Source of the DNA: a virus
Taxonomy: Duplodnaviria; Caudoviricetes
Reading direction: 5' to 3' (one strand)
DNA: 52,403 bases
IMG/VR virus record: IMGVR_UViG_3300020161_001350
Location: 1-52,403 of that record
Shown: positions 2,383-40,745 of the stretch, piece after piece
Numbering within the stretch: position 1 is the stretch's first letter
How the letters are laid out: each line of letters begins with the position of its first letter
Made by a program: the position numbers and the translations under genes
Notes under the pieces: generated by a model
Seen by the model: only the letters and a program-made list of their open reading frames with translations
Told to the model about the DNA's origin: nothing
Database searches by the model: none

Positions 2383-2392
2383 TATATAAGAA

Positions 2393-2412: not shown

Positions 2413-2419
2413 GGTTGGT

Positions 2420-3427: not shown

Positions 3428-3474
3428 GCGAGCTCCTTTCATTGTGTGTCGCAAAAATATTTAGAGCCTTGGAG

Positions 3475-3503: not shown

Positions 3504-3504
3504 T

Positions 3505-4406: not shown

Positions 4407-4416
4407 TTTTACTTCC

Positions 4417-7225: not shown

Positions 7226-7389
7226 TCAACCTCTTGCTTGATAGTTCTAAAATCGACCTCATATGGTACACCAGATACACGGACTCTTTGGTCCTGTGGT
7301 TTATATTTCAACAGTTCATTTTCTAATTGAGCAACCTTATTTCTCAACTCTCTCAATTCGCCAAGGTATGCTTCGACCTCTAAATTCAT
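7222..7389 (-). CDS. small coiled-coil hypothetical protein (55 aa)
   Basis: Read manually, MNLEVEAYLGELRELRNKVAQLENELL...; overlaps both neighbours. Confidence 0.6.
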   Translation of the reverse strand: MNLEVEAYLGELRELRNKVAQLENELLKYKPQDQRVRVSGVPYEVDFRTIKQEVE

Positions 7390-7655
7390 TGTAGAACCCT
7401 CTCATCTGGCATTAAATGATTTTTGTCTGCTACTGATTGAACCAATTTATAAAATTCACCTTCGCAATTAACACCTTCATTCATACGAACCAGGCGTGCC
7501 AGTATCATACCAGACAATTGCATTGGTGTAACATTATGATTAATGACTTGATTCATTAGAAAATCATCAATTTCGTAACTGATCTTTACTACTTCTTCAT
7601 CTGTAACCATTTTTGATACAACCTTTCTTCTGCTTGATATGCTTCTTTTTCCCAT
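7386..7655 (-). CDS. hypothetical protein
   Basis: ORF; likely start at MVTDEE. Confidence 0.6.
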   Translation of the reverse strand: MGKRSISSRRKVVSKMVTDEEVVKISYEIDDFLMNQVINHNVTPMQLSGMILARLVRMNEGVNCEGEFYKLVQSVADKNHLMPDERVLQ

Positions 7656-25583: not shown

Positions 25584-25856
25584 TTAATTTTTATACGCAA
25601 TTGATACTGCTAAAACATCTGATCCAGCATCCAATTGTAATGTTTCTGTTATTTTTTTTTCTAATATTATTTCTGAATTGTTTAACATTGTAAAGGTTCC
25701 TACATTTGATCCTGCGCCATCTGCAATAATAATTTTGTGTTCTTGTGCGCCAGTATGAACTAATCTAACCACAACAGCATTATTAACTGTTGTGTTAGAG
25801 GATGCTCTAAGAGGAAATTCATTGCCTAAAACTTTTATTAACATTAACAATTCCAC
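25584..25856 (-). CDS. hypothetical beta-rich protein
   Basis: Coupled ORF. Confidence 0.7.
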   Translation of the reverse strand: MELLMLIKVLGNEFPLRASSNTTVNNAVVVRLVHTGAQEHKIIIADGAGSNVGTFTMLNNSEIILEKKITETLQLDAGSDVLAVSIAYKN

Positions 25857-26161
25857 TTTCTTAATGCTTTGTTGATACGGCTATCTGGATCATTGGCAGT
25901 TTTTGCTGATGTTAAACGCTTCTTCATACCACCCATACGAGCGCAGAATGATTTACGGCGATTTGCTGCCTTTGAACCTGGCTTCAATTTGCTTGGCTTT
26001 GTTGTAACTGCCATAGAAAGTTTTGAACCTGGATTCTCACGGCGATATGATTCAATACCTTTACGATTCAAACCGCCAGATTCAGATTTACCTTCTTTGC
26101 GTTGCCATGCAGCAACTTCATCTAAGGCTTCTTCTGTGATAAATGATTTAAAAGATTTCAT
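25844..26161 (-). CDS. basic phage protein (DUF6321-like) with CTS-like leader
   Basis: MKSFKSFITEE; GGLN.KG..SY...NPGS.L, RRKSFCARM, SRINKALRKWNC. Confidence 0.8.
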   Translation of the reverse strand: MKSFKSFITEEALDEVAAWQRKEGKSESGGLNRKGIESYRRENPGSKLSMAVTTKPSKLKPGSKAANRRKSFCARMGGMKKRLTSAKTANDPDSRINKALRKWNC

Positions 26162-28692
26162 CCTATTGGCCTTTTAGCTTTAAATGTTTTAATGTTGATA
26201 CCTTTTTGTTTCAATACATTATCATTAAAATCACTCATTGATGTAGCATCTTCACCACCGGCACCAATTGCTTCTTCAAATGGTTTTTTATTTTGTTTTG
26301 TTTTCAATGACGGCCTCTGTGCATTTTCTCCACCTGCCGACATTGATAAACCAGGTTCAATGCCTTTGTCAATTGATTCTTTTACTTTTTCTTTTTGGCG
26401 GGAGCGGATTTGCCCAAGCGTGATTTTTGTGGTTGGGGTTTCTTTGTTGGTGCCTTGGATTTCGGTGCCTGTGCCTTTGGCGTATTCGTTGGCGCTGGTA
26501 AGCTCGGTGTAACCTTCTGAGATAAGTTGTCTGCTCTCTCCTGTGCTACTCTGGTTGATCCGTCTAGCGGATGAGTTTGACTCTCTGATTTGCCAAAAAG
26601 GTTTTTGATTAAGTTCAACATCTTCATTCTCCTCATTTATTTTAATAACATAGCCATTTTTATAAGGCATGACTGTACCATTACTTGTATGTGCTTCTCT
26701 TGCAGCTGCAGCACGAAGCATAAATGTTCTTACTTTACCACTTTTATCTTTTAGAAGTTTAATTTCTTTTTTCTTTTCTTCTTCTAATTCAATCTCATCG
26801 ATTCGTGTACCAAGCAATAAGAGGTTTAATGATGAAGAATCGGACAACTGATATGATTCTGATAATTTACCTTTGCCAAAGTTAGATACATTAATTGGTG
26901 CACCTTTACGCTCTGGATCTGGATCATGTCGGCGTTTGGCAGAAACAGCAGATGCTCGTTCTTTCTTACTCAACTTAGCACGCTTTTCATTCGACATACA
27001 TTTTGGTTTTGCTTCGCCTGGTTCACGAGCACATGGACCAATTGCTTCGCCTTTGCTGTTGATTCTTTTCCATCCACCTTTTGGATGTTTTGGATCAAAC
27101 CATTGGCGCAAATCTTCGGTGAATACTTCTTCAAATTCTTCATTGACACCTTTCTTTGGTGCACCAGAAGAACTCGATACAGGAATATTTGGTTGCTGTG
27201 GTTCTTCTCTCTGTACCTCAACAAGTTTATCATGGATAGAACGATATGTAACTTTACCATTTTTACCGTAGCGGCCAAATCCATAATAAGTTAATCCTAA
27301 TTTTCTAGCTTCTTCAGCAGCTCCAGAACCTGGATGTGGTGGCATTTCAGCACCTTCTTTTGGTACAGGCAATTTATCTGACAAATCTAATTCATGTGCA
27401 ACCCATAAAGATGCCGCTTCTGATTTTGGTGGATCTGCTACGAATTGTTGGATATTTTTAAACAACTCTGTCATTTCATCTTTTTTAGCTTTAACAACAT
27501 CCGGTGCGGCCGCTCTTAAATCTTCTGAGTTATCAAATTCAACATAACGGTCACCAAACATTTTTGCTAATTCTGGTCTTGCGTTCTGAACTGCTTCCCA
27601 TTTTTGACGGCGAATATCTTCTGGTACTGTTCTACCGCCACGTTGTCCTCTTTCAACATTTCTTTGTGCTGATACTTCATCATTTGTATTCACCATAATC
27701 ATTGAAGTATCGTAACCAATTTCTTCTAAGCGGTCTTTAATGCGACCAATCTTTTCATGGTCATCACCTGTGCCGTTAATGATAAGACCATTACGACCCA
27801 TCAATGCTAAACGCTGACGCAACTCAGTCATATTTTTGGCTTTACCACGAACAACATCACGCTTTTCTTTTTCAGCTTCAGGCATTGTTTTGTCAAGACC
27901 TTCTTTGTCCATCAAAAACTCTAAAGCTTTATCTGAATTGATTTCTGTAAGACCGTGACCATCGAGTGTGTTGCTAAGAACATAATCTTTACCAGAACCA
28001 GGACCACCTGCTAAAAAAACTGCTTTGAAAATAGCCTTATCATGCACACCTTCAATAAGCAATTCTTGAAAATCTTCGTTTACATCTTCGTTCATTCCCA
28101 TGCCTTTGCGAACATGGTTAAACATTTCTTTTGCGTGAGCATCAGTCATCGCTGAAGGAACACCTTTGCGAAATTCTTTGTAATTGCCATTTGAAGCATG
28201 CTCACGCATTTTGCTTGCTGACATACCTTCTACACCTTCGGCATCTGGATCACGCTCACCGGCAGAATGAACTTCAATGTGTTTAAAGTTATAAGAACCA
28301 TGTGGTCCTTTTACGCCATTATATTTGTGTAGAAGTTTATGATATTCATCGGCACGGTCTGAGCCGCCAACCATGTGGAAATGTGTTACACCTTGTTTGT
28401 GTAACTTTGCGGCTTGTGCTAAGAAATTTGGTGCAGATGCGTCAGATGAAGATACATTGACGCCAGGAAAAGCACGCTTAGCATGCTTGAGTTTTTGTGC
28501 GGGAGAAAGAGGATTTTTCTTTGGATCTTGTGAGTGCGAAACAACGATATGTGCAGAACCACCAACTTTTTTGGCAATTTCTTGTACTTTATTGACAAGT
28601 TTTTCATGGCCAACTGTAATTGGGTTCATACGCCCAAAGGCCATTACTGCATGTTTTTCTTTCTGCTCTAGCAGAAAATCGCTAAATTTCAT
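26158..28692 (-). CDS. multidomain protein: HxGH nucleotidyltransferase + zeta-toxin-like P-loop kinase + small basic domains
   Basis: FGRMNPITVGH, VGGSDR, SAGERDPD, MSASKMR; FLAGGPGSGK, INSD, IINGTG, RN..R. Confidence 0.88.
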   Translation of the reverse strand: MKFSDFLLEQKEKHAVMAFGRMNPITVGHEKLVNKVQEIAKKVGGSAHIVVSHSQDPKKNPLSPAQKLKHAKRAFPGVNVSSSDASAPNFLAQAAKLHKQGVTHFHMVGGSDRADEYHKLLHKYNGVKGPHGSYNFKHIEVHSAGERDPDAEGVEGMSASKMREHASNGNYKEFRKGVPSAMTDAHAKEMFNHVRKGMGMNEDVNEDFQELLIEGVHDKAIFKAVFLAGGPGSGKDYVLSNTLDGHGLTEINSDKALEFLMDKEGLDKTMPEAEKEKRDVVRGKAKNMTELRQRLALMGRNGLIINGTGDDHEKIGRIKDRLEEIGYDTSMIMVNTNDEVSAQRNVERGQRGGRTVPEDIRRQKWEAVQNARPELAKMFGDRYVEFDNSEDLRAAAPDVVKAKKDEMTELFKNIQQFVADPPKSEAASLWVAHELDLSDKLPVPKEGAEMPPHPGSGAAEEARKLGLTYYGFGRYGKNGKVTYRSIHDKLVEVQREEPQQPNIPVSSSSGAPKKGVNEEFEEVFTEDLRQWFDPKHPKGGWKRINSKGEAIGPCAREPGEAKPKCMSNEKRAKLSKKERASAVSAKRRHDPDPERKGAPINVSNFGKGKLSESYQLSDSSSLNLLLLGTRIDEIELEEEKKKEIKLLKDKSGKVRTFMLRAAAAREAHTSNGTVMPYKNGYVIKINEENEDVELNQKPFWQIRESNSSARRINQSSTGESRQLISEGYTELTSANEYAKGTGTEIQGTNKETPTTKITLGQIRSRQKEKVKESIDKGIEPGLSMSAGGENAQRPSLKTKQNKKPFEEAIGAGGEDATSMSDFNDNVLKQKGINIKTFKAKRPIG
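26382..26621 (-). CDS. putative nested out-of-frame gene (79 aa, K/P/A-rich)
   Basis: GAGGAG 7 nt upstream of the ATG; MLNLIKNLFGK amphipathic start. Confidence 0.5.
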   Translation of the reverse strand: MLNLIKNLFGKSESQTHPLDGSTRVAQERADNLSQKVTPSLPAPTNTPKAQAPKSKAPTKKPQPQKSRLGKSAPAKKKK

Positions 28693-28727
28693 ATCTCTCC
28701 CGCCTCTACAGCGTTACATTGATATGC

Positions 28728-28735
28728 TATTTATA
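28728..28735 (-). promoter_or_regulatory. T4-type late promoter TATAAATA
   Basis: Perfect consensus, intergenic, upstream of the 844-aa gene. Confidence 0.75.
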
Positions 28736-28739
28736 CGGT

Positions 28740-29447
28740 TTAATCTGTTCTAAATGTAACAAAACCACCATGCATTTTAGGAACCGAGTCTGGTTGCATG
28801 ACTGTTCTTGACATTCCTATCTCCATAGGAATCTTTTCGCCAATATTGCCTTTATCAAAAACAACGATAGAATCGTAAACAGACATGCACTTAACATTAC
28901 GAGTGAAATAATCAGGCTCTTTCTGACCCCTAGCATGATCTGCATTAATACTATCGATCATTCCCTTTGCGACATTATTAATTGATTCCGGTTCTTTAAT
29001 ACTTCCACCATGAGAATCCCAATATGCTGCATGAGTATCTTCAATAAAATAGATGCCGTTGTCTGCCATTTTTGGAAATAAAAATTGAAAGGTTTTATTT
29101 ACATGAGCAACATGATGTGATCCATCATCAATAATCAAATCAAACTCACCAAATTCTTCAATTAAACTTTGTAAAAATTTCTCATCTGTTTGATCGCCAA
29201 TACGAATATTGATACGTTCTTGTTCGTGTTGTTTACATAATGGATTAATATCTATACCAACAATTATGGCTTCTGGAAAATAATAACGCCACATTTCTAA
29301 AGATCCTCCGTTTAAAATACCAATTTCTAATATCTTAATTGATTTATTACGGATTGGAGAAAAATGCTTCTCGTAAATTGGAAAATAATGTTTCCATTTT
29401 GTAATTTTTTTGCCTTTATTTGTTGTAAAATAATTCCACAATTCCAT
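28740..29447 (-). CDS. class I SAM-dependent sugar O-methyltransferase (MycE/TylE-like)
   Basis: KW.HY...Y, LEIGI..GGSL.MW, GIDI, GDQ, IIDDGSH, YFIED. Confidence 0.85.
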   Translation of the reverse strand: MELWNYFTTNKGKKITKWKHYFPIYEKHFSPIRNKSIKILEIGILNGGSLEMWRYYFPEAIIVGIDINPLCKQHEQERINIRIGDQTDEKFLQSLIEEFGEFDLIIDDGSHHVAHVNKTFQFLFPKMADNGIYFIEDTHAAYWDSHGGSIKEPESINNVAKGMIDSINADHARGQKEPDYFTRNVKCMSVYDSIVVFDKGNIGEKIPMEIGMSRTVMQPDSVPKMHGGFVTFRTD

Positions 29448-30157
29448 TAATATCTCTCCTTTTCATATGTACCAGCAATAATGCCAAAACATTTTATTCT
29501 ATCAAATTCAACAATATGTTTTTTGTCTAAACACAAATAATGAGCATGTTCTGTATCAATGCCATGTGACATAACATTACTTATCATTGGTCCTATTGTT
29601 TGTAAATAATTATCCAACAAAGATGGACAAAAAGAATACATCCGTGTGATGTACAGATGGTCCGTAATAGTTCTTTTTCTTTCTTCTGGCATCCATGATG
29701 GTAGTGATTTTTTAAAAACATATTTTCCAAATTTGTTATTATATTCAGTAATATCAAAATCATCTTCTAATAATGATCTTGCAGAAAACTTAAATATTCT
29801 TTTAACTCCGTGTAAAAAACCCATCAATTCAGGATTGTTTTTGAATTGTATAAGTGTGTTTAGTAACAATAAAAGTTCGGCTTCATTTTTTCTGCCGGCC
29901 AAAGCAAAAGATTTAATTTCTGGATGGCTGCTAAACCAAAGAGCTTCGCAATATTTATTGATCAGTTCTTTCGTTTCTTTTGGTACATTTTCTGGTGAAC
30001 CGTCAACAAAAAGAACAGCTGCATCGGGAACTTTATCTCTAAGATTATCCAATGTTGCAATAGTTTGTTCCAATCGTTCTTTTTCTCCAATAGTGCCAAT
30101 TTTAGCATTTAAAGCTGAAGTGATAATGAATAAATTTCTGGTTGGTATTATTGTCAT
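29447..30157 (-). CDS. putative glycosyltransferase-like protein (paralog B)
   Basis: IITSA, R..QT..T, VDGS, IFKFSARS, DTEH; paralog of 30937-31650. Confidence 0.6.
   Translation of the reverse strand: MTIIPTRNLFIITSALNAKIGTIGEKERLEQTIATLDNLRDKVPDAAVLFVDGSPENVPKETKELINKYCEALWFSSHPEIKSFALAGRKNEAELLLLLNTLIQFKNNPELMGFLHGVKRIFKFSARSLLEDDFDITEYNNKFGKYVFKKSLPSWMPEERKRTITDHLYITRMYSFCPSLLDNYLQTIGPMISNVMSHGIDTEHAHYLCLDKKHIVEFDRIKCFGIIAGTYEKERY
29488..29530. repeat. 43-bp exact direct repeat, copy 1 (copy 2 at 30978-31020)
   Basis: aacattttattctatcaaattcaacaatatgttttttgtctaa in both paralogs, offset 1490. Confidence 0.9.
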
Positions 30158-30158
30158 T

Positions 30159-30935
30159 TTATATACGATAAACTTCACTAGAGGTTTCAGAATTTGCTCT
30201 TTTTTTAATTAACTCTATTATTTTTGAGTCGTTGATTTGCTCCTTGTGTGGAGCAAAAAGAGCTCTATCGTGTTTTTCAGCTTCTTCTCTTGGAGAAGAA
30301 ACATAGTATATTGCTAAAGATTTTCTATATATTCCTTCAGGACAATTAATTGAATCAGGAAGACCATGCCAAGAATTTTGAGTGGTATCAAAAATTACAG
30401 CTCGGTTAAATTCATTTGAAATTCGTTTAATACAATTTTTTGGTAATTTTTTTTCTTCATCGTTTGACCAAAATTCTAATCCTCCACCCCATTCATTTTG
30501 CCAGTTGGGGGTCATATACATAATAATATTAATTCTTCTCTCCATTTTTAACTTTGGATGAATTGAATAATCTTTGTGTATATTTAATTTACCATTTCGG
30601 CCGTGCATATGCCATCCTCCGCCATGTAAACCATAATCAGCAATTAGATTATTGATTCCTGTAATTTTTTTAATTTTTTCTAAAAATACATCGCTATTCA
30701 TTAGAGAAAAAATTTGATAAGTTGTTTTTGGAAATAAATTCCAGTTAGAAGAAGCTCTTTTGTTTTCAATTGGGTTATCATAAATCGACCAAAGGGCATC
30801 ATCATAATCAGGAAATTCCAAAGCTAATTTTAAAGCAATCTCTTTTTCAAAAAAATTATCAATTATACAATGTGAAAATGGTTCTGAATTTTTAAATGTT
30901 TTTTGTAAATTTTCATAATCAAATTCATTGATCAT
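30159..30935 (-). CDS. 2OG-Fe(II) oxygenase (prolyl-hydroxylase-like)
   Basis: PF.H..IDNF, GGG.H, IHKD, WGG.LE.W, FNRAVIF, SWHG, RKSLA.YY. Confidence 0.88.
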   Translation of the reverse strand: MINEFDYENLQKTFKNSEPFSHCIIDNFFEKEIALKLALEFPDYDDALWSIYDNPIENKRASSNWNLFPKTTYQIFSLMNSDVFLEKIKKITGINNLIADYGLHGGGWHMHGRNGKLNIHKDYSIHPKLKMERRINIIMYMTPNWQNEWGGGLEFWSNDEEKKLPKNCIKRISNEFNRAVIFDTTQNSWHGLPDSINCPEGIYRKSLAIYYVSSPREEAEKHDRALFAPHKEQINDSKIIELIKKRANSETSSEVYRI

Positions 30936-30936
30936 T

Positions 30937-31650
30937 TTAATATCTCTCCAATTGACCAGAATTTGAAACAATTCCAGAACATTTTATTCTATCAAATTCA
31001 ACAATATGTTTTTTGTCTAAGCAAAGATGATGAGCATGTTCAAAATCGATTCCGTATTTTACAACACTATTTAACATTGGTTCAATTAATTGTAAATAAT
31101 TATCTAACAAAGATGGACAAAAAGAATACATTCTTGTAATATAGAGGCAATCAGTTATATGTTTTTTTCTTTCTTCTGGCATCCATGATGGCAAAGGTTT
31201 TTTAAACACATATTTACCAAAAAGACCATTATATTCATCAACATCAAAATCATCTTCTAAAAAACTTCTTGCTGAAAATTTAAAAATTCTCTTAACTTCA
31301 TATAAAAACTTCATAAATTCAACATTTTGTTTAAATAAACAAAAAACATTAAATAACAAACAAAATTCAGCTTCACTTTGACGGCCAACCGAAGACATTG
31401 CATTTATATCTGGATGTTGACCAAACCAAATACATTGGCAGTATTGACTAATTATTTTTTTAGTTTCTTCTGGTATTGGATCAGGAGAACCATCCACAAG
31501 AAGTAAAACTGCATTAGGTACCTTTTGTTTTAAATTAAGTAATGATTCGACCGTTTGTTTTAATCTTTGATTACTGTTAACGACTCCTCTTTTTGAATTT
31601 AAAGCAGATGTTACAATAAACAAATTTTTATCAGGAATTATTGATGCCAT
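30937..31650 (-). CDS. putative glycosyltransferase-like protein (paralog A)
   Basis: Same motifs as 29447-30157. Confidence 0.6.
   Translation of the reverse strand: MASIIPDKNLFIVTSALNSKRGVVNSNQRLKQTVESLLNLKQKVPNAVLLLVDGSPDPIPEETKKIISQYCQCIWFGQHPDINAMSSVGRQSEAEFCLLFNVFCLFKQNVEFMKFLYEVKRIFKFSARSFLEDDFDVDEYNGLFGKYVFKKPLPSWMPEERKKHITDCLYITRMYSFCPSLLDNYLQLIEPMLNSVVKYGIDFEHAHHLCLDKKHIVEFDRIKCSGIVSNSGQLERY
30978..31020. repeat. 43-bp exact direct repeat, copy 2
   Basis: Identical to 29488-29530. Confidence 0.9.
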
Positions 31651-32306
31651 TCTATATCCGGAAAAAGTTTAATTGTTTTATATTCTACATTTTGCTGACT
31701 ATCACAAATAAATGCAATAAGTTTAGCAATTTCTTTTGGATCTAAAAGTTTTGTCAAATCATCGTGAAAATCAGAACCACTCCATAATGAAGTATTAATA
31801 CCTCCAGGATGAATACTCGTAACTTTTATTTTTCTTTTCTGTAATTCTTTACTTAACACACCAGCAAATCCTGTAAGGCCATGCTTTGAAGCACAGTAAA
31901 TAGATTGATTTTCTAATTCTTCTAAACCTGCTACAGAATTGATAAAGATTATCCTACTTGGTTCTTTCATTAAAGGCAATAGATATTTGGTAACATAAAT
32001 TGATCCTTTCAAATTGGTATCAATAATTCTATCGATTACATTTAATTCTGTATTCTCAAAATCAATATATTCAAAGTCAGCTGAGTTATTAATTAATAAA
32101 TCAATTTCATCTTTAACGTCATACTGAACCAATACTTTAATTAAATCAGCGTTAGTAATATCACATTCTAAATGACGATAGTAATGATGTTTAATAACTG
32201 AAGGAGTTCTAGACATACCATAAACTTTCCAACCAATTTCGATTAGATGTTTTGCGATTTCTAGGCCTACACCACTCGTTGTTCCAGTTATAAATGCTGT
32301 TTTCAT
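31638..32306 (-). CDS. short-chain dehydrogenase/reductase
   Basis: TGTTSGVG, LINNSA, NSVAG, YCASK. Confidence 0.93.
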   Translation of the reverse strand: MKTAFITGTTSGVGLEIAKHLIEIGWKVYGMSRTPSVIKHHYYRHLECDITNADLIKVLVQYDVKDEIDLLINNSADFEYIDFENTELNVIDRIIDTNLKGSIYVTKYLLPLMKEPSRIIFINSVAGLEELENQSIYCASKHGLTGFAGVLSKELQKRKIKVTSIHPGGINTSLWSGSDFHDDLTKLLDPKEIAKLIAFICDSQQNVEYKTIKLFPDIEWHQ

Positions 32307-33436
32307 AATTCTTCAAAAATTGCTATTGCTTTTTCTATATCTTTGTCAGTCAAATCGTTTATAAATTTATAATTGCCAATATCAATCGGTATAGGAATAT
32401 ATTGATTACCGTTGCGATGCTTCATTGTATCAGATAATGACTTTTTAAGCAAGTCTATATTGGTAAAATCGTTATGAAAAGTAGGTAATCTTAACTTTCC
32501 TGCAACATTGAAAATGCGCTTGGCGATTTCTCTATTGATATGCCCACGGCTATATGAAATACAAGCAGAAAATAAACAATCTAGTACAACCGCTTCACCG
32601 TGTAATAAGTTTGGTATATTTGCCATTTCTATAATTGGACTAAAAGTGTGGCCATAATCTACACAGCGGTTTAACTTTTTCTCCCATAGATTTGGTGCCA
32701 ACTCATCGATCATATCAGAAATGGCAAGATTAATAACACGAACAGGAACAGCACCAAACTGAAACTTCTCATTGATAAGTTGATCATAATTTTCTTCCAA
32801 TAACACAAATAATTCTTTAGATTTGATAACTGCAAGTTTAAAAATTTCTGCAATGCCGTTTATGATTTCTCTTTCGTCTTGCGTTTTAATAAACTTTTTA
32901 TCTATGAGAGTTGCAATTGGTGGATAATAAGCACCAATACGATTACGCCTTTCAAAATGATTCGCAGCTACTTTTACACCAACTGAGGCATCTACAATTG
33001 CTAAAAGAGTTGTTGGCACTTTGATATATGGAATGCCACGGCGATAGATACTGCAACAAAAACCAACCAAATCAAGTAAGACACCGCCACCAATTACAAT
33101 TACTGGCTCTCGGCGTAAAACGCCCTCATTTTCAAAAAATCGTAATATTTCATTGGTGTGTTGCCAATCTTTATTGGCTTCAGTTGCATCAATGATGTAT
33201 AAACGACAATCAATTTTTAAAGTTTTAAAGTAGTTCGATATTTTTTCACAATATAATTTATATACATTCTTATCTACAACAACAATTCTACGATCACCTG
33301 TTCCATAGGATATCAAATCGTGATTGGCCGGATCAAATACATTGTTTGAATAATGTATTGTAAAAGATACAGGCAAAGTAGCATTAACTTGCCATGTTCT
33401 CTTTGAATTATTAAAATCAATTAACAAATCGTTCAT
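32303..33436 (-). CDS. sedoheptulose 7-phosphate cyclase, 2-epi-5-epi-valiolone synthase (EEVS)-type
   Basis: GGGVLLD, YRRG, VPTTL...VDASVG.K, MIDELAPNLWE, VDYGHTFSP, LLHGEAV, KHRNG. Confidence 0.85.
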   Translation of the reverse strand: MNDLLIDFNNSKRTWQVNATLPVSFTIHYSNNVFDPANHDLISYGTGDRRIVVVDKNVYKLYCEKISNYFKTLKIDCRLYIIDATEANKDWQHTNEILRFFENEGVLRREPVIVIGGGVLLDLVGFCCSIYRRGIPYIKVPTTLLAIVDASVGVKVAANHFERRNRIGAYYPPIATLIDKKFIKTQDEREIINGIAEIFKLAVIKSKELFVLLEENYDQLINEKFQFGAVPVRVINLAISDMIDELAPNLWEKKLNRCVDYGHTFSPIIEMANIPNLLHGEAVVLDCLFSACISYSRGHINREIAKRIFNVAGKLRLPTFHNDFTNIDLLKKSLSDTMKHRNGNQYIPIPIDIGNYKFINDLTDKDIEKAIAIFEEL

Positions 33437-34407
33437 ATAAAAATCTTACTGAATAGTTTACAGGCATGAAGATAGAAATACTTAGCGTGGTCGTAATTAC
33501 CAGCTGCACACTTGAATGGCAACATACGAATAAATTGTGTTGCTTCTAAAACATCTACAATTTTCTTTGTTCTTGATTCCACCAATTCAGAAGTAAATAA
33601 CTCATTGAACTGTCTAAAATTATCTGATGGTTGAATATCATTACACCAAACTTTGGAATCTTCTACATTGATTGGTTGATTATTGAAGTGTTCGTATAAG
33701 CTGTGTGAACTTTGTAACACCATCGAATAATCTAAAAATCTACTGTCAATGATACTTTCTTCATATGGGTCAACAAACACAACCATATCGTCAACAAAAG
33801 AATATAATGTATTTTCTAATGTTGGATTGCCATGAATACATTCTTCGTTGATCAAATTCATTTCTGTAAAAAAGTTTCTCAATTCATCCATAAAATTGGT
33901 AATGCCATGAACAATTTCACCATTTAATTCATATGTTCCATGAGAATAGAATTTATTAAACTCATCGAACTTATTTGCATCGATAAGTTTTTGTTGAATT
34001 TCTTCTTTGAAATAAAGTAAAGCTGCACCAGAATTTGGCACATAATCAATACGATGCAATTCTTTGAAAGCATTCCATAAAGCATGGTTAATTTTCTTTA
34101 ACTCATGTTCAGACAAATCACGACCAGAAAGAATGGTGTATAAGTCAGAATAACCATCCATGTATTGTAAATCAAAATATGCATCTTCTTTTTCATAAGA
34201 TACATTTAATACTTTAGGAAACAACCTAGGAAATTCTGTGTTATATCGTTGGAGTTTTTTTAATTGAGAGTACCAGCGAACATAACCATATTCTCTGTTC
34301 TCTGTTAGAGATACAGTTTTTCGTATAAATTTCTTATTGTCCTGTTCAATTAAGTATGTCGAACTTAATGAACCGCCTTTTAGTTTTGTCTGCCTACTAT
34401 TGACCAT
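33433..34407 (-). CDS. APH/choline-kinase-like phosphotransferase
   Basis: LKGGS, F.RK, HGNPTLEN catalytic loop, FVDP. Confidence 0.7.
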   Translation of the reverse strand: MVNSRQTKLKGGSLSSTYLIEQDNKKFIRKTVSLTENREYGYVRWYSQLKKLQRYNTEFPRLFPKVLNVSYEKEDAYFDLQYMDGYSDLYTILSGRDLSEHELKKINHALWNAFKELHRIDYVPNSGAALLYFKEEIQQKLIDANKFDEFNKFYSHGTYELNGEIVHGITNFMDELRNFFTEMNLINEECIHGNPTLENTLYSFVDDMVVFVDPYEESIIDSRFLDYSMVLQSSHSLYEHFNNQPINVEDSKVWCNDIQPSDNFRQFNELFTSELVESRTKKIVDVLEATQFIRMLPFKCAAGNYDHAKYFYLHACKLFSKIFI

Positions 34408-35120
34408 TTTGCTATTTCTAATCCATATTCTTGTGGTGAACCAAGAACAATAGTTTCTTCTCGGTTGTTCAATTCATTTGTTACAATAAGTTTTCTATCA
34501 TTCAACATGAGAGCTAAAACATCGGCAATATACATCTCTGATTTGGTAAAATCTTTTTGTAATTTGTTAAAGTATTCTTGGTATAGTTCAGCCGTCTTAA
34601 AACAATACAAACCAGAACTTGCAAAAGGAGAAATAGGATTCTTTTCTACAATTTCTATGACCCTATCTCCCTCTTTCTTTACATATGAATACTTAGGATT
34701 ATTTGCAACAAATACATCTACAAAAGCATCCGCTGTTTTTAACATTTCTATAATGTGATTAAAATTTCTAAATGTTAAATGTGTATCTGCATTATGAACA
34801 AAAATTGGTTCATTACTTTTTGCAATAGTAGAACCAATGTATGCAGTATGCGCCTGACCGTTTGTATCTCCAATATAGTGAATATTAGTTTCATCTAAAC
34901 CAATATGTTTAATTGCATCAACTAAACTTTTTCTAAAATATAAGTCCCTTTTGTTTGCTAACAATATTATATTTGCAAATTTATGTCTTGTTTGAAATTC
35001 ATTAATAATTGAATGAATGATGCAGCTGCCACGCCAAGGTAACAAATACTTTGGCATATCAAAACCAACATCATGGAATCTGGTGTTTAGACCAGCCATG
35101 CAAATAATTAACGAGCCCAT
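34380..35120 (-). CDS. sugar-phosphate nucleotidyltransferase (NTP_transferase family)
   Basis: MAG..TRF...G...PKYLL, TNGQA.T, HNAD, YSYV, IVEK..IS..A.SGLY.F, LGSP.EY. Confidence 0.85.
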   Translation of the reverse strand: MGSLIICMAGLNTRFHDVGFDMPKYLLPWRGSCIIHSIINEFQTRHKFANIILLANKRDLYFRKSLVDAIKHIGLDETNIHYIGDTNGQAHTAYIGSTIAKSNEPIFVHNADTHLTFRNFNHIIEMLKTADAFVDVFVANNPKYSYVKKEGDRVIEIVEKNPISPFASSGLYCFKTAELYQEYFNKLQKDFTKSEMYIADVLALMLNDRKLIVTNELNNREETIVLGSPQEYGLEIAKWSIVGRQN

Positions 35121-35818
35121 TGTTCAAAATCCTCACGCAGTAAAGAGTGCCATGTGCCATTGTATGGGCCTGGTGGAAATGGATGATTAATATTACAATA
35201 AACCAAGTTTTCTCCAACCATATTAAAATGTTTCCAATTTTCACTCATCAAATCTTCACACATCATCTGAGTACCACGATCATAGTGATGATCAATAAAA
35301 TCAAAAGCCTTTGCATATTTGTTCATATTTTCTGACGATGAAAAGGCAAATTGATCGTTACCAAAATCTCTTTGTGGCGTCATGCGACAATTTGGAATAT
35401 AAAGTTTACTATTGTCCAATTCAGTAAAAGGTATTGTAGCATTGATAGCAAAATCAAAACGAGAACGTATGACCCAATCGAAAATAATAGAGTTTTCTTC
35501 TTCATAAATGGTTTTTAATTCATTACATTTTTTAATAGCATATAACTGTGCATATGTTGATAATGCTGGATTTTTTACTTTCCAATTAGGTTGCGGTGGA
35601 GGAACTCTTGTATATTTTGATAAGTCTGGATTAATTGGTTCTTCAACCATCATCGCTTCAGGCTTATAAAGTTCAAAAGCTTTTTTTGTTTCTGGTGATT
35701 CCCATGTGTGTATAAAAACAGTTACATCATTATTGTTAATGATGTTTTGTTTATGGTATTCATATCCTTTTTCTACACAACGAGGTTGACCTGTAATACA
35801 TAATGCAATTTTAGCCAT
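35108..35818 (-). CDS. putative glycosyltransferase
   Basis: KIALCITGQPR, VFIHTW, FDWVIRSRFD, NDQFAF. Confidence 0.65.
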   Translation of the reverse strand: MAKIALCITGQPRCVEKGYEYHKQNIINNNDVTVFIHTWESPETKKAFELYKPEAMMVEEPINPDLSKYTRVPPPQPNWKVKNPALSTYAQLYAIKKCNELKTIYEEENSIIFDWVIRSRFDFAINATIPFTELDNSKLYIPNCRMTPQRDFGNDQFAFSSSENMNKYAKAFDFIDHHYDRGTQMMCEDLMSENWKHFNMVGENLVYCNINHPFPPGPYNGTWHSLLREDFEQWAR

Positions 35819-36650
35819 ATTTTGCCTCTAATATTTTTTTCCAATTAGGAATTCTATCATATTGATGAACAATTGTAAAGGGTATCCCGGTAGATGTTGT
35901 AACAATATCATCATTTATTTTTGGCTCGGCTTCAATTAAAAATGGTCTGAATTGTTCAATCTTAGTTGGATCTCCAGTTGTGCCAAGTTGTGCAGCCCAA
36001 GCATCTTCTGACCGCAAATACACCGAGGTTTCTTTATATGGCGACATTGAAATCATAAAGTTAAATGTGGATTGGTCACAAATAGGAATTGGTTTGCCTT
36101 GTGTAGAAACAAAGATATTACAAATCAAATCACGAACAGCATGACCACGACCAGCAAGAACACCCACATTATAAATTTCATTGTGTTTAAATTTACTGTA
36201 AATGAATTCGCCAAAAGTTTGAAGCAGATTTTCGTTGCCCCATGGCTCATCTTTGTAATACATGCTTTCAGAAGCAAACATTAGATTTTTATCGTCTGTT
36301 AAAGCTTTTTCCATGTAATCAATTGGATTTTGTTGAAAGACAACATCTTTCACATCGGTAGTAACAACATACCGATATTCGTTCTGTGATAGGAAGTTAT
36401 AGATGTGCAGAAATCTTTCCACATGTGGCGCCCGGCCAGTTTGTGGATAAGTTAAATTGCCTTGAGAATCTTGTTGAAAACCTACGACTTTGAATCCCGC
36501 ATCAGATACTTTTTTTACCGTATCTTTGTCGCAGTTCATTAGAATCAGGACCTTATCACCTTGGAATCCTGATTTGTTGATTGAATTTACCCAATATTTT
36601 AGGATATTCCAATCATAGTTTGTTGCACCACCAATTATCAAATCTTTCAT
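35811..36650 (-). CDS. putative GT-A nucleotide-diphospho-sugar transferase
   Basis: ERF, TTDVKDVVFQ.NP, YNVG, DQSTFN, IVHQYDR. Confidence 0.7.
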   Translation of the reverse strand: MKDLIIGGATNYDWNILKYWVNSINKSGFQGDKVLILMNCDKDTVKKVSDAGFKVVGFQQDSQGNLTYPQTGRAPHVERFLHIYNFLSQNEYRYVVTTDVKDVVFQQNPIDYMEKALTDDKNLMFASESMYYKDEPWGNENLLQTFGEFIYSKFKHNEIYNVGVLAGRGHAVRDLICNIFVSTQGKPIPICDQSTFNFMISMSPYKETSVYLRSEDAWAAQLGTTGDPTKIEQFRPFLIEAEPKINDDIVTTSTGIPFTIVHQYDRIPNWKKILEAKYG

Positions 36651-36671
36651 AACAACCTCATTGTGTATTAA

Positions 36672-37007
36672 TTACTTATGCTTGCTATAATCCTTAAATC
36701 GTTTAATTTCTTGGCCTGGAGTTCCGTTCTGATAATTTCGCCGTAATGTATCTGTTCCCCATTGACCTGCGCCAGCAACAGGCAATATATCTGGATTTGG
36801 TGATTTCTTTTCTTCACTTACACTTTTATGGAGTTTTACATTGGTAACAGACTGAATATGTTTCCAAGCGCCTTGTGTATCTTTATTCTTTAGATGCTGT
36901 TGAAGCTTCTTCTTTTGTTCTTCGTTGGCCTTTTGATGAAACTTAAACATTTCCATCGCACCAATATTGCCAACATAAGCGGCTTCATCTACCTTGCTTT
37001 TAAACAT
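36672..37007 (-). CDS. hypothetical protein (possible internal protein)
   Basis: VDE and VSEE putative cleavage sites; GAGQWGT...TPGQ. Confidence 0.7.
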   Translation of the reverse strand: MFKSKVDEAAYVGNIGAMEMFKFHQKANEEQKKKLQQHLKNKDTQGAWKHIQSVTNVKLHKSVSEEKKSPNPDILPVAGAGQWGTDTLRRNYQNGTPGQEIKRFKDYSKHK

Positions 37008-37291
37008 TAACCCCTCGTCAACTTTAATATTTTTTGCATTTGTTTTTCAATGATTGGTCCACGATTTGGCCAATGAATGTATGGTTGACTAGCAGACTTA
37101 TATAGATTGGTTAGAAAAGGCATAATAATTTTTTCTACTTGATCTAGCCTTGCTTTGTATTCTTCTACTGTTTCATCTTTTTCTGCAATAACTGCTTGAT
37201 ATTCAGCTTCATCGACCGTAGTAAAGCCAAAATCGTCTTCACCATATTCTTTGAGAATGTCGTTGATATTGTAAGTCATTATTTGTCCCAA
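37007..37291 (-). CDS. conserved hypothetical protein
   Basis: DFGF...L.NL...YIHWPNR. Confidence 0.75.
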   Translation of the reverse strand: MGQIMTYNINDILKEYGEDDFGFTTVDEAEYQAVIAEKDETVEEYKARLDQVEKIIMPFLTNLYKSASQPYIHWPNRGPIIEKQMQKILKLTRG

Positions 37292-38505
37292 TTCTTTGCT
37301 GCATTAAAGTTTGCTTGACTAAATTCTAAACGGTCAACCAATTTAACTGCATTACCTTTTAATCTATCTACTGCAACAAAACCTTCTGGTGCAGTAATTC
37401 TAAATCCATCATCTGTTTTTACAAATGTACCAATTGATTTGACTGTTTCTAACTTACGAACAATCATCAGTTTTGCATCTACTAATAGATTCTGTAAATC
37501 GAAGATGGATCGTAATTGTGCTGCATTTTGACGGAAGAACCGCATGAGTTCTGTTTTAGCGGCAATTCGTTTTCTCTTTGTTTCTTCTTTCTTTACATCA
37601 GCAATATCTTTATTTAGCTTCGCCTCAACCCAGCGAATCAATTCTAATGTGTGCTGATTTGTATTACTAATCTTTTTACCTTCACGCACTTTAGCATTAT
37701 TAAAAGTCTTAATGTAAGTTTTAATTATTTCGTTAGAGGCTATACGATTTAAAGTCATTGATGAAATGCTTTGAAATGTGCGACCTGCTAAAGAAAGTAT
37801 TGTGGTAAGTTGTTTCGTTTCTTCTTCTGTGAATGTAGCAGAACCAGAAGTGTCTACAAATGAAGCATCACGGAACCAAACATCTTTGGTATTTGTAAGA
37901 CCTCCAAGGTCAACATTGAAAGATGCCTTCATATCTTGCATCTTTTTACCTGTGTATGATGTGTGAAACACCACACCAATCTGTGCATCTAGCATTGAAC
38001 GAGCCAATTTTATATCAGAAGGCACCGCATAAACAATCGTGTTTGGTTGAAATGTAATGTATGATTCACCACCAATAACTTGTTTCTTAATATCGCCTTT
38101 TGTGAACATCATATCACCTTGCAAGACACCTTTGATGCCAAGTTTTGGTAGATAACGCAAGGCTACTTTGAGTTTTTGATTGAGGCCTTCTGTTGGATGA
38201 TTGTTGTCAATATCTTCATCTGTGTAGTTTAATTTTGGATTAACATTGAATACGCCTTTGGTGCCAACAAAGAATTTACCATTCTCAGGATTAACACCAG
38301 CAAAAATAGCAGGCGCACCATCCCATTTGGTCGTAACATTTACTTTTGATTCGGCATTACCTGCCAACATATTGCGAAGTGATTGTAGAAAGTTAATGGC
38401 AGACCTGGCACCAGATATGCCAAAATTTAGAACTTCATCCTCAATATGCTCAAGGTGAACATTCTTACCTTCTTTACCTTCTGTTAAGTATTCTGTGAAA
38501 TTCAT
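37279..38505 (-). CDS. DUF6267-like protein with ligase-type nucleotidyltransferase motifs
   Basis: KN.HLEHIED, TTKWDGAPA, QGDMMF, PEGFVA, VKLVDRLEFS; MNFTEYLTE leader. Confidence 0.8.
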   Translation of the reverse strand: MNFTEYLTEGKEGKNVHLEHIEDEVLNFGISGARSAINFLQSLRNMLAGNAESKVNVTTKWDGAPAIFAGVNPENGKFFVGTKGVFNVNPKLNYTDEDIDNNHPTEGLNQKLKVALRYLPKLGIKGVLQGDMMFTKGDIKKQVIGGESYITFQPNTIVYAVPSDIKLARSMLDAQIGVVFHTSYTGKKMQDMKASFNVDLGGLTNTKDVWFRDASFVDTSGSATFTEEETKQLTTILSLAGRTFQSISSMTLNRIASNEIIKTYIKTFNNAKVREGKKISNTNQHTLELIRWVEAKLNKDIADVKKEETKRKRIAAKTELMRFFRQNAAQLRSIFDLQNLLVDAKLMIVRKLETVKSIGTFVKTDDGFRITAPEGFVAVDRLKGNAVKLVDRLEFSQANFNAAKNWDK

Positions 38506-39611: not shown

Positions 39612-39612
39612 G

Positions 39613-39620
39613 TATTTATC
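39613..39620 (-). promoter_or_regulatory. T4-type late promoter variant GATAAATA
   Basis: Intergenic, at the head of the putative late block. Confidence 0.5.
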
Positions 39621-39629
39621 CTACCACGA

Positions 39630-40745
39630 CTATCTGATAATGTCAATCTCCTTATCACCAGTCCAAACTTCTATCTCTGTTCTCAGTCGATTTTCTGTCT
39701 GAAGTGTTGTAAATCTACTACAAGCCTTCTTTTTCCACCACTCTACGATGTTTTCTAAGTGGTGTTTATCGTAGTTTTCCTTGTCTGGTACAAGTTTATC
39801 TATCTTTCCTAGTACCACATCTTTAAAGTTGGAAAAGCCATAGTTTGAATAATAGTATCGTTTTCTTTCAGTCAAACCTTTGGCCTTTTCAATAGTGTTC
39901 ATAAACAAGTCATAATCACTTTTATGATTCTTTAATGCTGATTTGGTCATAGCAATAATTGTGGTACTAATTTTAAGTTTACGACTACTTGCATCAGCAG
40001 GAACAAATTCGCCTACAATATCTTCAACATAGTTCTTTAAATCTTCATAAGGTTTGCCGTGCATCATTGGTAGAAAATTGGATTCAGTTACACCGCCAAA
40101 TCGCAAATAAGGTTTCATACCATCGTACTGTGATACGGCTTTTGTGGTGCCATATAAACTGGTCGTTTCAAACAAGCAAGTATTCATATTATATTTTTTG
40201 TCCAGCATCTCTCTTACTTCATGTGAACAACAGATACCTGCAAGTAACTTTCCGCCAAGATAATTGAAACCAAAAGGCTGTGCTGGCACAATAACAAATC
40301 CCATAGCTGAAGCCCGATTGAAAGCTTTTGTTGTTTCTAGTTCGTTTGTCATTACACAACCAAGAAGTTCATTTCTTGGTTTCATCATAATCGTTGGAGA
40401 ACCAAGACGAATAAAACCAACCCACTTCTTCGTTTTCTTTTCCATTACAGCAAGGCGTATATTTCGGCCAGGACTACTAAGGTTGTTGTGTGATGAAATT
40501 ATATCCAAATATAACTGCCATCTTGCTGATTCTAATTCAACAACTTCAAACTCCATGTCTTGTGGGTTTATAGTGAAGTCATCAAATAAATCTGCTTCAG
40601 GTCCACAACCAGGTAGAGCAAAAGGCAACTCAGCAAGAGAGTTTAGTTTCTGCTCACGCATATATTCATCAATGCGATTGAAATCGCCAAAATAATCTTC
40701 AAAGACCTTAGCACAATGTAAGGCCTGATCATAATTCAAACTCAT
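39630..40745 (-). CDS. DUF4338 / DruA-like protein
   Basis: PGR, GFIRLGSP, P.QPFG.N.LGGKLLA, TTSLYG, SQYDG. Confidence 0.7.
   Translation of the reverse strand: MSLNYDQALHCAKVFEDYFGDFNRIDEYMREQKLNSLAELPFALPGCGPEADLFDDFTINPQDMEFEVVELESARWQLYLDIISSHNNLSSPGRNIRLAVMEKKTKKWVGFIRLGSPTIMMKPRNELLGCVMTNELETTKAFNRASAMGFVIVPAQPFGFNYLGGKLLAGICCSHEVREMLDKKYNMNTCLFETTSLYGTTKAVSQYDGMKPYLRFGGVTESNFLPMMHGKPYEDLKNYVEDIVGEFVPADASSRKLKISTTIIAMTKSALKNHKSDYDLFMNTIEKAKGLTERKRYYYSNYGFSNFKDVVLGKIDKLVPDKENYDKHHLENIVEWWKKKACSRFTTLQTENRLRTEIEVWTGDKEIDIIR

Follow-up and report, generated by a model that had tools for sequence, protein, structure and literature searches.

C7 cyclitols occur as drugs and antifungals of actinomycetes (acarbose and validamycin), as metabolites of symbionts, and as sunscreens of animals. 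To our knowledge, the known compounds are always free small molecules, and a nucleoside diphosphate (NDP)-activated form is known only as guanosine diphosphate (GDP)-valienol. Here, we describe a cassette of ten overlapping genes on a stretch of DNA from an uncultured lake phage (IMG/VR record IMGVR_UViG_3300020161_001350, positions 1 to 52,403; a 52.4-kb fragment, here called the window). On the basis of sequence comparisons and structure models, we think it fairly probable that this cassette encodes a phage route to an NDP-activated C7 cyclitol, i.e., a carbasugar, which would then be used by transferases of the phage. Up to the NDP-activated cyclitol, inference supports this reading well; transfer of the cyclitol and any target (virion, lipopolysaccharide [LPS], or DNA) remain inference.

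The most similar described system is the branch of acarbose and validamycin biosynthesis that runs via GDP-valienol (AcbC/ValA, AcbN, AcbU, AcbR/ValB, and AcbS/VldE). Like the route proposed here, it starts from sedoheptulose 7-phosphate with a cyclase of the EEVS type (EEVS, synthase of 2-epi-5-epi-valiolone) and, in the available part of PMC9200736, continues through a reduction by a short-chain dehydrogenase/reductase (SDR), a 1-kinase, and an NTP_transferase-family enzyme to an NDP-cyclitol for a transferase. The phage cassette differs from this branch in several respects. Pfam and NCBIfam scans revealed in it neither a ROK 7-kinase nor an epimerase, a dehydratase, or a phosphatase. Its kinase has the aminoglycoside phosphotransferase (APH) fold with an Asn in the catalytic loop, and its modeled transferase is of the GT-A type, in contrast to the GT5/GT20 type of AcbS and VldE (GT, glycosyltransferase). 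Finally, it is found in a lytic-type T4-like phage and in bacterial polysaccharide-type loci rather than in an actinomycete secondary-metabolite cluster.

Other systems resemble the cassette in part. The activation of alcohols for surface glycans by LicA and LicC has the same two-enzyme logic and the same kinase fold class, but the substrate in the phage would be a C7 cyclitol made in situ, and no LicD-type transferase was detected. The ADP- and GDP-heptose pathways (GmhA, HldE/HddA, GmhB, and HddC) also lead from sedoheptulose 7-phosphate, via a kinase and a nucleotidyltransferase, to an NDP-activated C7 unit for surface glycans. Unlike the proposed route, they retain the ring oxygen of the pyranose and rely on an isomerase instead of a cyclase resembling 3-dehydroquinate synthase (DHQS); Pfam and NCBIfam scans found no GmhA, GHMP, or PfkB family member in the cassette. 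Marine T4-like cyanophages and pelagimyophages carry sugar/LPS islands, in which nucleotide-sugar and glycosyltransferase genes likewise sit on a T4-like backbone, and modification of the host O-chain was proposed for the pelagimyophage islands (PMC7029224, available part). In contrast to the locus described here, the Pelagibacter phage HTVC008M lacks the cassette at the corresponding junction, and none of 50,697 phage records gave an EEVS-type match. The main text of PMC7029224 contains none of the terms "dehydroquinate," "valiolone," and "nucleotidyl"; its supplements, which might list such genes, were outside the search.

An earlier note on this DNA, made from the sequence alone, knew of no described phage carbasugar pathway. 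A full-text literature search agreed, finding no paper on a carbasugar or valiolone pathway in a phage or any other virus, and a 2026 review of cyclitols (PMC12904256) never mentions phages or viruses in its text. The chemistry up to the NDP-cyclitol is thus already known; its carriage by a virus, the family of the kinase, the partnership with GT-A proteins, and the setting of glycan type are new.

A ten-gene cassette in a T4-related lake phage

The window has an estimated completeness of 31% and derives from an uncultured, T4-related, lytic-type phage. Its replication module is T4-like, with a family-B DNA polymerase, UvsX, a DnaB-type helicase, a primase, and a ribonucleotide reductase, and the polymerase is approximately 51% identical to cyanomyophage polymerases. 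Exactly ten open reading frames (ORFs), all on the minus strand, fill positions 28740 to 36650, and neighboring ORFs overlap by 1, 20, 35, 13, 4, 4, 28, 13, and 8 nucleotides (nt), from the lowest coordinate upward and with the starts as listed. The earlier note's description of ten overlapping, co-oriented genes was thus borne out, with the ORFs in the order that it gave. G+C content was 0.288 to 0.319 in bins 30001 to 36000, versus 0.335 to 0.436 in the rest of the window. The region was covered by contigs from four lake or freshwater metagenome runs belonging to four studies; metagenomic pieces of up to 2,584 nt spanned the SDR, cyclase, and kinase-like genes, with 27 letters differing. A blastn search of the region's DNA against phage records returned just two short matches (66 to 69%), both to uncultured marine virus records.

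The cyclase is of the ValA type

The cyclase contains both DHQS-like domains (PF01761, 1.3e-34; PF24621, 1.8e-21). Its best solved relative was ValA, the validamycin EEVS (4p53; 300.7 bits, E 1.4e-88), followed by desmethyl-4-deoxygadusol synthase (DDGS; 5tpr, 227.3 bits), the best DHQS (133 bits), and 2-deoxy-scyllo-inosose synthase (2d2x, 85.4 bits). It missed both aroB equivalog cutoffs (TIGR01357, 216.7 versus 305 bits; NF004852, 191.6 versus 333 bits). According to a figure legend in PMC4426668, two active-site positions tell bacterial EEVS from DDGS. The phage enzyme has D260 (within VDYGH) and H340 (within KHRNG) at these sites, aligned with the Asp and His of ValA, whereas DDGS has Ala and Thr. 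In ValA, the two sites are Asp281 and His360. Both residues were invariant in 22/22 phage cyclase homologs, as were E197, H263, and H279, which are presumably the metal ligands.

We scanned 1.84 billion representatives (50% identity) with the cyclase using HMMER and took the best 150, of which 8 with fewer than 300 aligned residues were dropped. In the resulting alignment of 143 rows (the window cyclase and 142 representatives), Asp and His occupied both fingerprint sites in 125 rows. EEVS and EVS, the synthase of 2-epi-valiolone, have the same active-site residues. Judged by its sequence, the enzyme is a ValA-type sedoheptulose-7-phosphate cyclase (EEVS/EVS class), neither AroB nor DDGS, and the earlier note's preference for an EEVS-type enzyme over AroB was therefore sound.

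Close relatives were absent from the phage genomes searched. A tblastn search of the 50,697 phage records with the cyclase matched only 15 records, all with at most 31% identity; those with annotation were labeled aroB or 3-dehydroquinate synthase, and several were bacterial chromosomes or tiny fragments. Scans of genome contigs with the phage cyclase or its alignment gave a sole match, to aroB in a metagenome-assembled genome (MAG) of HIMB59.

Conservation of the cassette in related phages

Using peptide words of the window cyclase, we retrieved 36 IMG/VR loci with cyclases 63 to 96% identical to it. A gene was counted as present when a plus-strand tblastn match had an E value of ≤1e-5 and covered at least 30% of the query, and counts were taken over the loci with room on the contig. 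The kinase-like gene, the nucleotidyltransferase (NTase) gene, the SDR gene, and the genes for two transferase-like proteins, unk236 and unk279, were found in every such locus, and the GT-A family (unk237/243) was found in all but one (Table 1). The O-methyltransferase gene was present in 22 of the 36 loci, mostly between unk279 and unk236 (homologs 34 to 39% identical, and 92% in L001, the closest relative), and the 2-oxoglutarate (2OG) oxygenase gene in just 6. Synteny of the gene set across 36 IMG/VR loci puts its arrangement far beyond chance. The earlier note had named gene order in other phages beforehand as a test of its proposal; cyclase homologs do co-occur with the kinase, NTase, and GT-type genes in phages, and the core four genes also do so in bacteria (see below).

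In the related phage loci, the cassette always lies between the DUF6267/hyp94 gene and the cytidylyltransferase-kinase gene. HTVC008M is collinear with the window (DnaB, 60% identity; DruA-like protein, 49%; DUF6267 protein, 42%) and has a single 170-amino-acid (aa) ORF between these two flanking genes, with no cassette. The cassette is therefore an island of approximately 8 kb at a conserved backbone junction. The island is enlarged in L002 (positions 999 to 7620) and L004 (2995 to 4023 and 8852 to 11895) by genes for a DegT aminotransferase, GDP-mannose-dehydratase-like/epimerase proteins, an RmlD-like reductase, and a GT10 fucosyltransferase-like protein. These extra DegT, NDP-sugar, and GT10 genes fit glycan building, and the carbasugar core is one module of a variable multi-sugar island.

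Table 1. Features of the cassette and its surroundings in the window, with presence of the genes among related phage loci
Feature	Coordinates	Strand	Evidence	Present in loci with room
371-aa protein with Druantia DruA domain	39630..40745	-	PF14236, 5.5e-11; phrog_19197, 8.5e-133	
DUF6267 protein	37279..38505	-		
Putative GT-A-like transferase (unk279), 279 aa, first gene of the cassette	35811..36650	-	Weak GT_PLOD match; phrog_1579	30/30
DUF7796-like protein (unk236), 236 aa	35108..35818	-	PF25072, E 7.1e-5, below cutoff	33/33
Sugar-1-phosphate-type NTase, 246 aa	34380..35120	-	PF00483; PDB 4evw	33/33
APH/choline-kinase-fold protein, presumed cyclitol kinase with atypical catalytic loop, 324 aa	33433..34407	-	AlphaFold2 fold	34/34
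Sedoheptulose-7-phosphate cyclase, EEVS/EVS (ValA-like) class, 377 aa	32303..33436	-	Pfam; PDB sequence search; fingerprint sites	
Classical SDR, presumed C-1 ketoreductase, 222 aa	31638..32306	-	adh_short, 1.7e-36; phrog_3142, 7.3e-42	34/34
GT-A-fold protein copy A (unk237), 237 aa, inside the accessory indel	30937..31650	-	AlphaFold2 model and Foldseek	32/33 (unk237/243 family; absent in L003)
2OG-Fe(II) oxygenase, accessory	30159..30971	-	PF13640, 2e-16; PF13661, 1.1e-12	
GT-A-fold protein copy B (unk243), 243 aa	29447..30178	-	63% identical to copy A	See copy A
MycE/TylE-like sugar O-methyltransferase, 235 aa, last gene of the cassette	28740..29447	-	Profile versus PDB	
Presence/absence polymorphism, 1,490 nt, covering the 2OG oxygenase and one GT-A copy	30147..31636	.	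Variant contigs	
844-aa cytidylyltransferase-kinase protein	26158..28692	-	phrog_3041, 2.9e-68; PF06414, 2.8e-11; phrog_727	
DUF6321 protein	25844..26161	-		

Bacterial counterparts of the core genes

Seven bacterial genome loci (L039 to L045) were found by a contig scan with the representative P0136, a predicted kinase-cyclase fusion whose N-terminal part shares 41% identity with the kinase-like protein of the phage and whose cyclase part shares 50% with the phage cyclase. Six of them have the kinase gene, and in five of these six, the kinase, cyclase, SDR, and NTase genes are adjacent in that order (L040, L041, and L042, Myxococcales MAGs; L043, Fibrobacteria; L044, Balneolaceae). The Streptomyces locus (L045) has the cyclase and a weak SDR match. 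Bacterial kinase homologs were 32 to 42% identical to the window protein; in the five complete loci, the SDR homologs following the cyclase were 37 to 43% identical and the NTase homologs beside the SDR were 33 to 38% identical. L044, the sole bacterial context annotated, is a polysaccharide-type locus: its neighboring genes encode an ATP-binding cassette (ABC) transporter, a formyltransferase, methyltransferases, a DegT fragment, a haloacid dehalogenase (HAD)-NTase, a GT2 protein, and, directly upstream of the kinase, a homolog of unk236 (tblastn, 2e-8; hmmsearch, 6e-14).

In a FastTree phylogeny of 161 rows (cyclases from the window, from 12 of the 36 phage loci, and from 6 bacterial loci, together with 142 representatives), the 13 phage cyclases formed one clade with a support of 97. 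Outward from this clade followed P0135, P0139, and then a group with L040, L042, L043, and L044 (supports of 87, 93, and 75). The phage cassette thus probably shares ancestry with the kinase-cyclase-SDR-NTase cassette of bacterial polysaccharide-type loci, with no direction of transfer implied. Cyclases of this class also occur naturally fused to a ROK kinase (P0143, P0146, P0150, and P0153), to an NTP_transferase (GlmU-like) domain (P0164), and to an AMP-binding enzyme (P0147). The domain further occurs within very long proteins of 2,447 to 2,787 aa (P0137, P0238, P0241, P0245, and P0278).

A proposed route to an NDP-activated cyclitol

By close homology, the cyclase would convert sedoheptulose 7-phosphate to 2-epi-5-epi-valiolone or its 5-epimer, with loss of the phosphate. 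The SDR would then reduce the C-1 ketone, like the SDR AcbN of the acarbose pathway. Its fold and the need for a phosphate suggest that the kinase-fold protein would phosphorylate the new pseudo-anomeric hydroxyl, in parallel with AcbU acting on valienol and with N-acetylhexosamine 1-kinase and methylthioribose (MTR) kinase acting on sugars, and the family membership of the NTase suggests that it would form the NDP-cyclitol, as AcbR and ValB form GDP-valienol. Because the cyclase strips the phosphate and an NTase requires a phosphate ester as substrate, the route with the fewest steps runs from ketone to alcohol to 1-phosphate to NDP-cyclitol. The order cyclase, SDR, kinase-fold protein, and NTase, which the earlier note had already proposed, is the simplest chemistry, and the four genes co-occur in phages and bacteria. 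Biochemical precedent exists for a cyclitol 1-kinase (AcbU) and a cyclitol-1-phosphate NTase (AcbR/ValB) (PMC9200736, available part). The earlier note went too far in seeing a full route analogous to those of validamycin and acarbose: only the cyclase is shared, plus the SDR and NTase at the family level, there is no ROK kinase, and Pfam detected neither an AcbO-type epimerase nor an AcbL-type dehydratase.

In the last step, for which the case is weakest, the GT-A-fold proteins, unk279, and unk236 would attach the cyclitol or cyclitol phosphate to an acceptor, and the MycE/TylE-like enzyme would subsequently O-methylate the attached cyclitol. The 2OG oxygenase and the second GT-A copy would be optional extras.

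The SDR gene overlaps the cyclase gene by 4 nt. The NTase matched PF00483 (3.7e-11) with 43.5 bits, against a Pfam cutoff of 21.2, and a solved relative was an NDP-sugar pyrophosphorylase (4evw, 1.9e-20); in NCBIfam, it matched TIGR03992 (1.4e-14) and glmU/rmlA-type models, all below their cutoffs. The kinase-like protein had no Pfam or NCBIfam match, and a sequence-profile search of PDB with its family gave nothing usable. Its AlphaFold2 model (mean predicted local distance difference test [pLDDT] score, 92.4) was compared with PDB by using Foldseek, yielding fructosamine-3-kinase (3jr1, 3.3e-8) and N-acetylhexosamine 1-kinase (4ocv, 7.4e-8); APH(2'')-Ia, MTR kinase, and LicA choline kinase (ranks 43 to 46) were also among the neighbors, with E values from 3e-8 to 1e-6. 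Against 3jr1, 4ocv, 5byl, 2olc, and 4r78, the Foldseek probability was 1.00 and the template modeling (TM) score was 0.43 to 0.55, indicating a bilobal kinase fold. At the level of the fold, the label "APH-like kinase" therefore holds.

Observations that weigh against the proposed route

A number of observations speak against this route or narrow it. The first concerns the kinase-like protein. APH-type and protein kinases have a catalytic Asp in the motif H-x-D-x4-N, spaced as in HRDLKPEN. The catalytic loop of the phage protein reads H192-G-N194-P-T-L-E-N199, with an Asn at the place of the Asp, and this Asn was found in 21/21 phage members (21 of the 35 available phage sequences were aligned), in 6/6 bacterial homologs, and in P0136. 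K30 (the ATP-anchoring Lys) and D213 (the metal-binding Asp) were conserved in 21/21, and N199 was also kept, these roles being assigned by motif spacing; the motif THGN..LEN..FIDPYEE was common to 6/6 bacterial homologs. Judged by this conservation, Asn194 is a family trait and not a sign of decay. The protein may nevertheless be a poor or atypical kinase, or no kinase at all, and an Asn at the position of the catalytic Asp lowers confidence in a simple phosphorylation of a hydroxyl.

The second concerns the transfer chemistry. The GT5 and GT20 families are GT-B. As described in the available part of PMC9200736, known pseudoglycosyl transfer depends on valienol as an allylic donor and on an amine as the acceptor, C-N links occur in all natural pseudo-oligosaccharides known, and the known pseudoglycosyltransferases are GT5/GT20-like. 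The modeled transferase of the cassette (the unk237/243 pair) is GT-A, unlike these GT-B enzymes; Pfam and NCBIfam scans gave no GT5 or GT20 match in the ten proteins and no recognizable dehydratase or aminotransferase in the window. The unk237/243 family has no DxD motif (position 53 is D in 20/24 and E in 4/24 sequences, followed by G/A and S55). Metal-independent GT6 enzymes exist, however (e.g., 4ayj, one of the unk237 fold matches), and a missing DxD motif does not exclude activity. Structural relatives of the unk237 family also occur in a cyanophage record without a tblastn match to the cyclase.

The third concerns the comparative evidence. The 36 phage loci were retrieved by words of this very cyclase and represent one lineage. 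Among the bacteria, L039 (Holophagaceae) has the kinase and cyclase genes with no adjacent SDR or NTase gene, and no homolog of the phage methyltransferase was found in the seven bacterial loci, nor any member of the three transferase-like families save for the single unk236 homolog. A search for longer fused forms of the kinase returned only P0136, on a 4.2-kb contig, and this APH-type fusion could be an assembly artifact.

Finally, the hydroxylation that the earlier note had counted as a pathway step is not constant in the population. Contigs from two lake-metagenome runs of two studies (X7 and X10) join position 30146 to position 31637, in frame between the GT-A paralogs; the shorter flank of the joint is 251 and 255 letters long, and 7 letters are shared at the joint. 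L001 has the same single-copy layout and keeps copy B (unk243; 91% identity). Since the 2OG oxygenase gene lies within the stretch missing from the variant contigs, hydroxylation is not a fixed step; the oxygenase and one GT copy form an accessory indel at the population level.

Transferase-like proteins and the methyltransferase

The earlier note's labels for the cyclase, SDR, NTase, 2OG oxygenase, and O-methyltransferase stood, as did that of the kinase in terms of its fold and those of the two "GT-like" proteins A and B, which have the GT-A fold; its two other GT labels, for unk279 and unk236, are weak. The AlphaFold2 model of unk237, built from a joint alignment of both paralogs (pLDDT, 91.6), has a GT-A Rossmann-like fold. 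In PDB, Foldseek matched alpha-1,3-galactosyltransferase (2.2e-7), glycogenin, BoGT6a, and Kre2 (TM scores, 0.45 to 0.54), and the nearest solved folds were retaining GT6, GT8, and GT15 enzymes (2e-7 to 5e-6; TM scores, 0.44 to 0.54). BFVD gave as neighbors uncharacterized proteins encoded by an uncultured phage and by Synechococcus phage S-SRM01 (TM scores, 0.84 to 0.86), and the GT-A-like viral fold neighbors included a DUF7796 protein (rank 28) and a Stealth protein (rank 31). A Pfam scan of all members of the family gave noise only.

For unk279, the GT_PLOD match (E 5.2e-4) was below the cutoff and was shared by 7/20 aligned homologs, and phrog_1579 (glycosyltransferase) was matched at 3.4e-6. 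Its ESM Atlas neighbors were viral hypothetical proteins, one cluster carrying PF03407 on 10% of its members, and the stretch T97-T98-D99-V100-x-D102-V103 (TTDVKDV) was invariant in 20/20 sequences. For unk236, the top ESM Atlas clusters carried DUF7796 on 17 to 44% of their members, and phrog_13607 was matched at 2.8e-26; there was no PDB sequence match, and our literature search found no paper mentioning DUF7796 or PF25072. Sequence-profile searches of PDB with unk236, unk279, and unk237 gave nothing usable, and hhalign found no relation among the three families.

The O-methyltransferase profile, built from 15 of 23 available homologs, matched MycE (3ssm, 5.5e-36; query residues 29 to 219), TylE (8ia9, 4.9e-29), and CmcI (3e-4) in PDB. 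The protein also had weak class I S-adenosylmethionine-dependent methyltransferase matches in Pfam and a match to phrog_21658 (1.1e-22), and it lacks the auxiliary domain that MycE (chain length, 419 aa) has at its N terminus. Two starts probably lie downstream of those listed: homologs of unk243 align from residues 8 to 10, pointing to the ATG at residue 8 (position 30157), and those of the 2OG oxygenase align from residue 13, pointing to the ATG there (position 30935).

Fate of the cyclitol

The GT-A-like enzymes might attach the NDP-carbasugar, by an O-linked pseudo-glycosidic or a phosphodiester bond, to a macromolecule such as a virion protein or a host surface glycan; we offer this as a tentative and rather doubtful proposal. 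A weak lead to a protein acceptor is given by the subthreshold PLOD-type match of unk279 together with the prolyl/lysyl-hydroxylase-type 2OG oxygenase of this variant. PF00303 (thymidylate-synthase/hydroxymethylase type) was absent from 4/4 records (that of the window and three related ones of 133 to 146 kb, 31 to 85% complete), which gives no support to a T4-style DNA sugar acceptor; as the records are incomplete, this evidence is weak.

A serious alternative to glycosyl-type transfer, although on balance an unlikely one, is that the NDP-cyclitol donates cyclitol phosphate, following the logic of LicA/LicC/LicD or of cytidine diphosphate (CDP)-alcohols, and that the product is a phosphodiester-linked cyclitol on a glycan or protein. 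LicA choline kinase is among the fold neighbors of the kinase model, and the pairing of a kinase with an NTP_transferase mirrors LicA/LicC, LicC being an enzyme of the NTP_transferase family. Attack at phosphorus would also avoid the problem posed by the missing ring oxygen of carbasugars, and the known pseudoglycosyl transfers need amine acceptors (PMC9200736, available part). A Stealth protein (a sugar-phosphate transferase) is also among the viral fold neighbors of unk237; with both Stealth and DUF7796 proteins among these neighbors, the two chemistries cannot be told apart by the fold. Against phosphotransfer, Pfam and NCBIfam scans at E ≤0.01 found no LicD, Stealth, or CDP-alcohol phosphatidyltransferase in the ten proteins, and the best solved neighbors of unk237 are ordinary retaining glycosyltransferases. 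Moreover, MycE and TylE, the relatives of the O-methyltransferase, act on glycosidically attached sugars.

MycE and TylE equally tailor small-molecule glycosides, and the end product could instead be a free cyclitol or pseudo-oligosaccharide serving as a glycosidase inhibitor or signal in the infected cell rather than a decoration of a macromolecule. All characterized EEVS pathways in the available part of PMC12904256 end in small molecules (validamycin, acarbose, kirkamide, and gadusol), and the DegT aminotransferases of L002 and L004 would supply an amine for pseudoglycosyltransferases. We nonetheless regard a free product as quite unlikely: the window itself has no aminotransferase by Pfam and NCBIfam scans, the cassette has no GT-B transferase of the known pseudoglycosyltransferase type, the bacterial counterpart L044 has an ABC transporter and a GT2 protein nearby in a locus of the polysaccharide type, and the related phage islands hold several NDP-sugar genes and GT10, like glycan loci.

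It is less probable still that the locus is a mixed sugar island, in which the kinase-like protein is dead or has another role, the NTase serves an ordinary sugar, and the cyclase and SDR give a free reduced cyclitol. The Asn throughout the kinase-like family and the scores of the NTase below every curated NCBIfam cutoff would fit such a mixture. However, this Asn, like K30, N199, and D213, is invariant in phage members and in bacterial ones that are 32 to 42% identical to the window protein, which indicates selection on an active site rather than decay; in addition, the kinase, cyclase, SDR, and NTase genes are adjacent across phage and bacterial lineages, and natural fusions join cyclases of this class to kinases and to an NTase.

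There is very little chance, lastly, that a gadusol- or mycosporine-type UV sunscreen is the product of the cassette or that its cyclase is a shikimate AroB: an EEVS and a methyltransferase-oxidoreductase make gadusol in vertebrates (PMC4426668, available part), the cluster has a methyltransferase, and public annotations label such cyclases 3-dehydroquinate synthase, but we rejected both possibilities because the cyclase has Asp/His where DDGS has Ala/Thr and scores below the TIGR01357 cutoff, the methyltransferase is MycE/TylE-like and confined to part of the loci, Pfam and NCBIfam scans found no ATP-grasp or NRPS-like (nonribosomal peptide synthetase-like) genes, and the kinase and NTase have no role in either pathway.

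Implications of a phage-encoded NDP-cyclitol

A cassette for an NDP-cyclitol in a whole lineage of lake phages and in bacterial polysaccharide-type loci would give carbasugars a place in the biology of glycans or virions. Glycosidases cannot cut a sugar mimic that lacks the ring oxygen, and such a mimic could affect phage-host recognition, superinfection exclusion, and resistance to depolymerases. If attachment to a macromolecule is true, it would be a hydrolase-resistant decoration and the first virus-made carbasugar glycoconjugate; the transferases would be the first pseudoglycosyltransferases of the GT-A type, and the kinases would form a new family that acts on cyclitols without the canonical catalytic Asp. 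The cassette also offers four small, easily expressed enzymes for NDP-carbasugars and a kinase family with an unusual active site.

Flanking genes and candidate signals

A scan of positions 26000 to 40000 for sigma-70 promoters and terminators found fewer sites than in shuffled sequence, and the T4 late-promoter word TATAAATA had 2 matches in the window versus 5.5 expected by chance. One TATAAATA is located at positions 28728 to 28735 on the minus strand, where 47 nt separate the final cassette gene from the 844-aa gene; its position is notable, with the count below chance.

The flanking genes encode proteins with similar N termini: the DUF6267 protein (MNFTEYLTEGKE), the 844-aa protein (MKFSDFLLEQKE), and the DUF6321 protein (MKSFKSFITEE). 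None of the ten cassette proteins starts in this way. The 844-aa protein combines a cytidylyltransferase-like N terminus (phrog_3041), a Zeta-toxin/AAA_33-type P-loop kinase (PF06414), and a C-terminal phrog_727 region, and a single profile, phrog_455, joins DUF6267 and cytidylyltransferase. Homologs of the 844-aa protein were present in 560 phage records, mostly of cyanophages. We set this protein aside as an alternative activating enzyme, since these 560 records belong to the collection that gave no EEVS-type match and since its gene in HTVC008M neighbors that of the DUF6267 protein without an intervening cassette. The 371-aa protein with a DruA domain has a counterpart of 49% identity in HTVC008M, and a domain of a defence system is thus found inside the replication module of a lytic-type phage.

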